Shown: one piece after another, positions 56,128 to 56,928 of the stretch
Layout: each line of letters begins with the position of its first letter
Numbering within the stretch: position 1 is the stretch's first letter
Assembly: GCF_013122565.1 (NCBI RefSeq)
Contig: NZ_CP053258.1
Direction: 5' to 3' (one strand)
DNA from: Escherichia coli
GTDB lineage: Bacteria > Pseudomonadota > Gammaproteobacteria > Enterobacterales > Enterobacteriaceae
Length of the DNA: 64,000 nt
Made by a program: the position numbers and the translations under genes
The notes under the pieces: generated by a model
What the model was told of the DNA's origin: nothing
What the model saw: only the letters and a program-made list of their open reading frames with translations
Databases searched by the model: none

Positions 56128-56394
56128 ATGTCTGCTGTTAAAAAGCAGCGTATCGATCTGCGTTTAACTGACGATGACAAAAGTATGATTGAGGAAGCTG
56201 CAGCGATATCTAATCAGTCCGTCAGCCAATTTATGTTGAACAGCGCTTCGCAGCGGGCTGCGGAAGTGATTGAACAGCATCGGCGGGTGATCCTCAATGA
56301 GGAATCCTGGACGCGGGTGATGGATGCGCTGAGTAATCCACCGTCACCAGGTGAAAAGCTAAAACGTGCGGCAAAACGTCTTCAGGGAATGTAA
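56128..56394 (+). CDS. DUF1778 (RHH-like) antitoxin of a GNAT-type toxin-antitoxin pair (88 aa); resembles AtaR/TacA-type antitoxins
   Basis: Small protein followed 7 bp later by a GNAT acetyltransferase ORF; typical antitoxin-toxin order and size; not present at this junction in K-12 (recollection). Confidence 0.6.
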   Translation: MSAVKKQRIDLRLTDDDKSMIEEAAAISNQSVSQFMLNSASQRAAEVIEQHRRVILNEESWTRVMDALSNPPSPGEKLKRAAKRLQGM

Positions 56395-56400
56395 TAATTT

Positions 56401-56928
56401 ATGGATGATCTGACGATAGAGATTCTGACCGATGATGCAGATTATGATCTACAGCGATTCGACTGCGGCGAGGAAGCGTTAAATCTCTTTCTGACGACAC
56501 ATCTAGTTCGTCAACATCGCAACAAAATTCTGCGAGCGTATATCCTTTGTCGCAACACTCCAGAACGTCAGGTGCTGGGATATTACACATTATCCGGCAG
56601 TTGTTTTGAACGAGCCGCATTGCCCTCGAAATCGAAACAGAAAAAAATTCCCTACAAAAATATTCCCAGCGTCACTCTTGGGCGTATGGCAATTGATCGT
56701 TCATTACAGGGGCAGGGATGGGGAGCAACACTGGTTGCTCATGCCATGAAAGTCGTCTGGTCAGCCTCTTTAGCAGTAGGTATTCATGGTCTTTTTGTAG
56801 AGGCGCTGAATGAAAAAGCCCATACGTTTTATAAATCGCTGGGCTTTATCCCGTTGGTCGGAGAAAACGAAAATGCGTTATTTTTCCCAACCAAATCCAT
56901 TGAACTGCTTTTTACACAGAGCGATTAA
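56401..56928 (+). CDS. GNAT-family acetyltransferase toxin (175 aa), AtaT/TacT/ItaT-like putative aminoacyl-tRNA acetyltransferase
   Basis: Acetyl-CoA binding signature (RMAIDRSLQGQGWGATLVAHAM); paired with the DUF1778 gene. Confidence 0.6.
   Translation: MDDLTIEILTDDADYDLQRFDCGEEALNLFLTTHLVRQHRNKILRAYILCRNTPERQVLGYYTLSGSCFERAALPSKSKQKKIPYKNIPSVTLGRMAIDRSLQGQGWGATLVAHAMKVVWSASLAVGIHGLFVEALNEKAHTFYKSLGFIPLVGENENALFFPTKSIELLFTQSD

Follow-up and report, generated by a model that had tools for sequence, protein, structure and literature searches.

Organisation of the livJ-panM interval

The stretch of DNA analysed here, 64,000 nucleotides of Escherichia coli sequence that we refer to as the window, carries two open reading frames for proteins of 88 and 175 residues between livJ and panM. 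Both were found on the + strand at exactly the coordinates given by the initial annotation (56128-56928), and the neighbours are the ones it had named. The interval contains the following features.

livJ, ending at 55978, + strand: upstream neighbour of ataR
55979..56924, + strand: polymorphic ataRT cassette, the whole interval from the livJ stop codon to the panM stop codon
55998..56030, + strand: intrinsic terminator-like hairpin downstream of livJ, an inverted repeat (GCCCGATG ... CATCGGG, then T7)
56081..56108, + strand: candidate sigma-70 promoter as read from the sequence, -35 TTGTAC (56081-56086), 16-nt spacer, -10 TATTAT (56103-56108), overlapping the operator
56082..56102, + strand: operator palindrome TGTACGG-N7-CCGTACA with perfect 7-nt arms, putative site of the repressor complex
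56116..56120, + strand: Shine-Dalgarno sequence AGGAG, 7 nt before the start codon of ataR
56128..56394, + strand: ataR, antitoxin of 88 aa with an ATG start and an RHH (DUF1778/TacA1) domain
56401..56928, + strand: ataT, GNAT toxin of 175 aa with an ATG start, S65 and M96 allele
56925..56928: 4-nt overlap (TTAA) of the convergent ataT and panM stop codons
56925-57308, - strand: panM, Pfam PanZ 191.9 bits

For livJ the mechanically called open reading frame starts with the GTG at 54818 (54818-55978, 386 aa), and the RefSeq-annotated LivJ start is the ATG at 54875 (367 aa). The stop codon of ataR is separated from the ATG of ataT by 6 nt (TAATTT), which places the ATG 7 positions past the last base of the stop and agrees with the earlier description of a GNAT gene following “7 bp later”. 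The antitoxin-first bicistronic order on one strand with a short gap is the arrangement of the GNAT/DUF1778 type II toxin-antitoxin systems. At the distal end, the 4-nt overlap between ataT and panM is also present in O157, E. albertii and E. ruysiae.

Identification of the pair as AtaR-AtaT

All 88 residues of AtaR are identical to those of the PDB chains 6AJM_C/6GTO/6GTS (E 7e-52), and the protein scores 90.4 bits with Pfam PF08681 (TacA1/DUF1778) against a cut-off of 21; its sequence is found on at least 1000 contigs. AtaT shares 173 of its 175 residues (98.9%) with PDB 6GTS_A (E 1.6e-115), the two changes being C65S and L96M, and the GNAT Pfam domains Acetyltransf_7 and Acetyltransf_1 are both above their cut-offs. 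Since the Pfam scores exceed the cut-offs and the products are nearly identical to solved structures, both open reading frames are real genes. The exact toxin is WP_171460219.1 / QJU26541.1, which is present on one 4.82-Mb contig and bears the NCBI name [quoted passage not shown]. In RefSeq the two genes between livJ and panM bear the names ataR and ataT in O157:H7 as well as in many further strains, and in O157:H7 Sakai AtaR-AtaT corresponds to ECs4308-ECs4307 (PMC7470980).

Judged from these protein sequences, the gene pair is the type member AtaR-AtaT itself and no new family member. The initial annotation, which had placed it in the AtaR-AtaT/TacA-TacT/ItaR-ItaT family, was right but understated the case: comparison with characterised GNAT toxins yielded near-identity to the AtaT of O157:H7, AtaR and AtaT being 100% and 98.9% identical to their crystallised O157:H7 counterparts and encoded at the matching livJ-panM locus. 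NCBIfam holds no AtaT- or AtaR-specific HMM and gave only sub-threshold MobA, RelB and RimI matches; the PGAP gene names ataR and ataT presumably derive from exact-protein rules. A six-frame search of the window with AtaT and AtaR returned the ataT and ataR open reading frames alone and no paralogues, and judged by gene order (ECs4261-4262 versus ECs4307-4308, PMC7470980) the AtaRT2 system is not within the window. With crystal structures, defined tRNA targets and a described regulation, ataRT is already a known system, so the locus carries little weight as a discovery, and the practical use of the identification is the correct annotation of the window.

The closest known system is thus AtaR-AtaT of O157:H7 (PDB 6AJM, 6AJN, 6GTO-6GTS, 7CHD), which has the same livJ-ataR-ataT-panM locus, an operon of identical anatomy and identical palindrome arms. 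It differs by C65 and L96 in AtaT, where the window allele has S65 and M96 (C65 being the rarer state), by five of the seven bases in the palindrome spacer (TGATGTG in the window, TGACATA in O157) and by nine synonymous differences across both genes. Next among the relatives with solved structures come KacA-KacT of Klebsiella pneumoniae (PDB 5ZGN, 5XUN), where KacT is 67% identical to the window AtaT (E 4e-74) and KacA matches AtaR at E 2e-38. KacT belongs to the GNAT-toxin clade A like AtaT and has a similarly broad aminoacyl-tRNA specificity (PMC9177977), and the pair likewise forms a heterohexamer on a palindromic operator (PMC6698736), but it is a separate orthologue located beside a Cu/Ag sensor kinase gene, with a DNA identity of approximately 68%. 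The GNAT/DUF1778 pairs on plasmids of Enterobacteriaceae (e.g. WP_000348884.1, IncF plasmids) have the same two-gene architecture and a toxin that is 63% identical, but they are plasmid-borne and unnamed and reach only about 68% DNA identity. More remote are TacAT (Salmonella), ItaRT (E. coli HS) and AtaRT2 (O157:H7), which are also DUF1778-paired GNAT toxins acetylating aminoacyl-tRNA (PMC9177977, PMC7470980), but belong to other clades with a narrower Gly or Ile/Leu specificity. PDB chains resembling TacT, ItaT and AtaT2 are distant from AtaT (E 1e-20 to 1e-4), and AtaT2 is 29% identical to it (PMC7470980). Among the closer homologues, a group of AtaT variants from E. ruysiae, E. marmotae and Escherichia spp. 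(P0047-P0057 in our set) is 92-94% identical, has 170 aa and is thus five residues shorter than the 175-aa form; these proteins are annotated only as GNAT family N-acetyltransferase.

Regulatory region upstream of ataR

The leader between livJ and ataR is 149 nt long (55979-56127). When the segment 55985-56040, which contains the hairpin, is folded as RNA, the energy is -22.4 kcal/mol (z = -5.2; none of 200 shuffled sequences was as stable), and the hairpin is an intrinsic terminator for livJ, carried by the ataRT cassette. A consensus scan for promoters and terminators in the region 55900-57400 called nothing: the hairpin was missed because its loop of 11 nt is longer than 8 nt, and the candidate promoter went uncalled because its -35 hexamer matches the consensus in only three of six positions.

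The palindrome is unique within the 64-kb window, where none is expected by chance. Its arms are invariant in seven alleles from E. coli, E. albertii and E. ruysiae, and among the same alleles the 7-nt spacer varies (TGATGTG, TGACATA, TGATATG, TAGAATT). Fixed arms around a variable spacer are the pattern that would be expected for two half-sites read by two RHH dimers. It has been published that an AtaT-AtaR4-AtaT hexamer binds a palindrome in its own operator (PMC6698736, PMC8138530), and by analogy the palindrome at 56082..56102 would be the binding site of this repressor complex. AtaR keeps R8, D10 and R12, the DNA-reading residues as defined in KacA (PMC6698736).

Residues of the AtaT allele and the expected mechanism

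The roles of the AtaT residues have been worked out by structure and mutagenesis (PMC7595197), and all 18 residues implicated in function are kept in the present allele. The residues for tRNA binding are F30, H34, R37, R40, N41, R71, S76, K77, S78, K79, K81, K82, P84, Y85, R95 and K165, and the remaining two are G108 of the motif QGQGWG for acetyl-CoA binding and Y144 for catalysis.

As for the two positions that differ from the O157 reference, S65 is present in 118 of 121 aligned AtaT sequences when the present allele is counted, and it occurs in common alleles of E. coli, in the AtaT of E. albertii and E. ruysiae, in KacT and in the plasmid paralogues. By this alignment S65 is the family consensus and the C65 of O157 the derived state. 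Position 96 was compared in 120 cluster representatives that are 62-97% identical to the window AtaT; Leu was present in 119 of them and a gap in one, leaving Met solely in the AtaT of the window. The corresponding codon (56686-56688) is ATG here versus CTG in every other allele examined. Position 96 adjoins R95, and an R95A mutant was as weakly toxic as Y144F (PMC7595197). The ratio of synonymous to nonsynonymous changes in ataT is 8:2 against O157 and 16:4 against Ecol_743, and synonymous changes dominate between alleles in both ataR and ataT, which indicates purifying selection. Since the replacement of Leu by Met is conservative, the S65/M96 toxin is most likely fully active.

The pair is very probably the chromosomal ataR-ataT type II toxin-antitoxin operon of E. 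coli, with the mechanism that has been published for AtaRT. The basis established here consists of the gene identity, the operon anatomy, the intact key residues, the conserved operator, the purifying selection and the distribution in populations and species; the enzymatic activity, targets, neutralisation and autoregulation of the present allele would be those of the literature by virtue of near-identity. In this mechanism AtaT would be a GNAT enzyme, active as a homodimer, that acetylates aminoacyl-tRNAs and thereby renders them unusable in translation, so that growth would stop. AtaR would dimerise through its N-terminal RHH domain and wrap AtaT with its C-terminal part, blocking dimerisation of the toxin, and an AtaT-AtaR4-AtaT heterohexamer on the palindrome upstream of ataR would repress the operon until surplus toxin releases the repression. 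For the published system, AtaR has been reported to prevent AtaT dimerisation and to form the repressing heterohexamer with AtaT, and surplus toxin to lower the operator affinity (PMC8138530, PMC6698736). The growth arrest caused by the O157 allele of AtaT, its neutralisation by the cognate antitoxin and the acetyl-CoA-dependent N-alpha-acetylation of aminoacyl-tRNA by AtaT have likewise been described (PMC7595197 for all three, and PMC9177977 for the last).

As related in later papers, the first reported target of AtaT was Met-tRNAfMet in vitro, implying a block of initiation. Later work in vivo and in vitro found that Gly-, Trp-, Tyr- and Phe-tRNAs are efficiently acetylated in addition to Met-tRNAs, giving a general translation block (PMC7595197, PMC9177977). 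The view in the initial annotation that the target tRNA could not be read from the sequence was too cautious in this respect, as the published AtaT specificity (PMC7595197, PMC9177977) applies because of the near-identity and because every tRNA-contact residue is intact.

Distribution of the cassette and the K-12 state of the locus

The ataRT cassette was found in 1624 of 5426 complete E. coli genomes (approximately 30%), in all 1624 cases as a single chromosomal copy, and no plasmid copy was found in this collection of complete genomes. The cassette is essentially full length in 1612 of them and partial in about 12; the one partial cassette that was inspected, from E. coli HH97 (locus L008:2147-2498), is an internally deleted pseudogene remnant. 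These roughly 12 genomes including HH97, with deleted, frameshifted ataR/ataT remnants at the livJ-panM site, show the locus in a third state, one of decay. The cassette of E. albertii and E. ruysiae occupies the identical livJ-panM site with matching boundaries.

The initial annotation had described the junction as short and empty in K-12, and in K-12 MG1655 we found a gene-free spacer of 187 nt between livJ and panM; ataRT, when looked for at this site, was absent from K-12. The boundaries were aligned between K-12, 99COLEC and 372_BP0083 on one side and the O157 and PapM-32-1 genomes on the other. Cassette-free genomes including K-12 have a spacer of 187-199 nt between the livJ and panM stop codons. 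The K-12 spacer contains a REP unit, which recurs in the window at 20077-20110 (- strand) and 44849-44882 (- strand), and in 372_BP0083 a pseudogene annotated as “hypothetical protein” sits on the REP units of the spacer. The first of the two REP copies in the window lies inside approximately 150 nt (19989-20140) that are extra relative to strain F8111-1SC3.

In a blastn comparison the K-12 spacer showed no homology to the cassette (best E 0.21), and the idea that the spacer is a remnant of ataRT was rejected on this ground. The absence of homology therefore shows the two to be alternative segments and not an empty site and an insert.

Age and history of the site

In the initial annotation the pair was described as “inserted” between its neighbours. 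This term does not hold, with the cassette being present at the matching site in E. albertii and E. ruysiae and lacking the hallmarks of a mobile element: no direct repeats, IS elements, integrase genes or tRNA genes flank it. Because one site is used in three Escherichia species and such hallmarks are missing, the cassette has long resided in the genus and is absent from many E. coli lineages, which makes the site an old presence/absence polymorphism. The locus thus has two long-standing states, the ataRT cassette or the REP spacer, with exact gene-to-gene boundaries that are common to the three species.

Divergence from the other two species was compared between the cassette and its flanks (loci L011/L012 for E. 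albertii and L014 for E. ruysiae). Against E. ruysiae the cassette diverges by 5.1% and the flanks by 4.7% (p = 0.70), a pattern that fits vertical descent. Against E. albertii the divergence is 2.9% in the cassette and 7.1% in the flanks (Fisher p = 6e-6); when the region 55925-56975 of the window is aligned, the cassette is 96-99% identical whereas livJ, panM and livK are 87-94% identical. This hints at a later exchange of the cassette between E. coli and E. albertii by homologous recombination.

Alternative explanations

The operon may be AtaRT with a toxin that has been attenuated or inactivated through L96M, as an early step of toxin-antitoxin decay, which we consider unlikely although several observations point in this direction. 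M96 is the sole non-Leu residue among the 120 homologues, it stands beside R95, which is required for toxicity (PMC7595197), the exact M96 protein was found on no more than one contig, and decay is known at this locus from the approximately 12 genomes with internally deleted remnants. The conservative nature of the change argues against it, as do the full length of both open reading frames, the unchanged catalytic and tRNA-contact residues, an entirely unchanged AtaR, and the fact that the remaining differences of the allele from its nearest relatives are synonymous (the 8:2 ratio against O157 given above). An extended version of this idea is more speculative and in our opinion rather improbable: M96, at a position that is otherwise Leu throughout the AtaT/KacT clade, would mark a naturally attenuated or specificity-shifted AtaT, a snapshot of toxin taming before loss of the cassette leaves the REP-spacer state of K-12, and the cassette would pass from one Escherichia species to another through homologous recombination that replaces the entire livJ-panM spacer. 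Whichever way M96 acts, a singleton L96M at an invariant position could be used as a natural experiment on what beta-strand 4 contributes to AtaT activity. It is very unlikely that the cassette is a recent horizontal insertion into a K-12-like empty site. Its absence from about 70% of E. coli genomes, the frequent occurrence of related GNAT/DUF1778 pairs on plasmids and the closer relationship to E. albertii than in the flanks, which suggests some lateral exchange, could be read in this way. However, direct repeats, IS, integrase or tRNA genes do not flank the cassette, the K-12 spacer is replaced and not interrupted, E. coli, E. albertii and E. ruysiae share one site with the same boundaries, cassette and flanks are equally diverged from E. 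ruysiae, and the plasmid relatives reach only approximately 68% DNA identity, with no ataRT found on a plasmid.

Compared with the preferred reading of the pair as a tRNA-acetylating AtaRT operon, two other functions appear more improbable still. The presence/absence polymorphism is typical of defence genes, and other tRNA-targeting toxin-antitoxin systems such as toxSAS have been implicated in phage defence (PMC11559606), which could suggest an abortive-infection anti-phage module. We regard this as highly improbable, as neither AtaR nor AtaT matched a family of PADLOC-DB v2 at E <= 0.01, the locus lies between housekeeping genes in three species and in no defence island or mobile element, and a literature search gave no report of phage defence by AtaRT. 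Most improbable of all, the main role of AtaT could be protein lysine acetylation for virulence and not tRNA poisoning: AtaT has been reported to acetylate the T3SS translocon protein EspB at K206, and deletion of ataT to attenuate EHEC (PMC7957018). This is one report only, while structural and LC/MS evidence points to aminoacyl-tRNA substrates (PMC7595197, PMC9177977). Furthermore, approximately 30% of E. coli carry the cassette, commensal, environmental and non-LEE strains among them, as does E. ruysiae, where EspB is not expected. The acetylation of EspB cannot account for a cassette that is also found in E. ruysiae and in strains of commensal or environmental origin.

An origin of the adjacent GNAT genes ataT and panM by duplication was considered as well and rejected, as BLASTP found no sequence similarity between AtaT and PanM (E 4.3). 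The initial annotation had called the nearness of the pair to panM probably coincidental, which is consistent with this result.

Other features of the window

Over 25-kb stretches the best-matching complete E. coli genomes of RefSeq reach only approximately 97.5-98% identity to the window; therefore the source lineage is without a close representative in the complete RefSeq E. coli collection. At around 3921-3957 the window is without the heme-uptake locus chu/shu of approximately 9 kb, which is present in the yhiD-dctR interval of the closest complete genomes (F8111-1SC3). K-12-type strains are not known to carry the chu/shu locus either. Between arsR and dinQ (approximately 9830-11480) collinearity with an annotated reference points to a putative IS200/IS605 element with a gene for a TnpB/InsQ RNA-guided endonuclease and a tnpA gene, the latter being frameshifted in the reference. 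Two small RNAs score above the Rfam gathering score, namely AgrB, the antisense RNA of the dinQ type I toxin locus, at 9590-9673 on the - strand (108 bits), and the ES205 sRNA at 89-160 on the - strand (105 bits).
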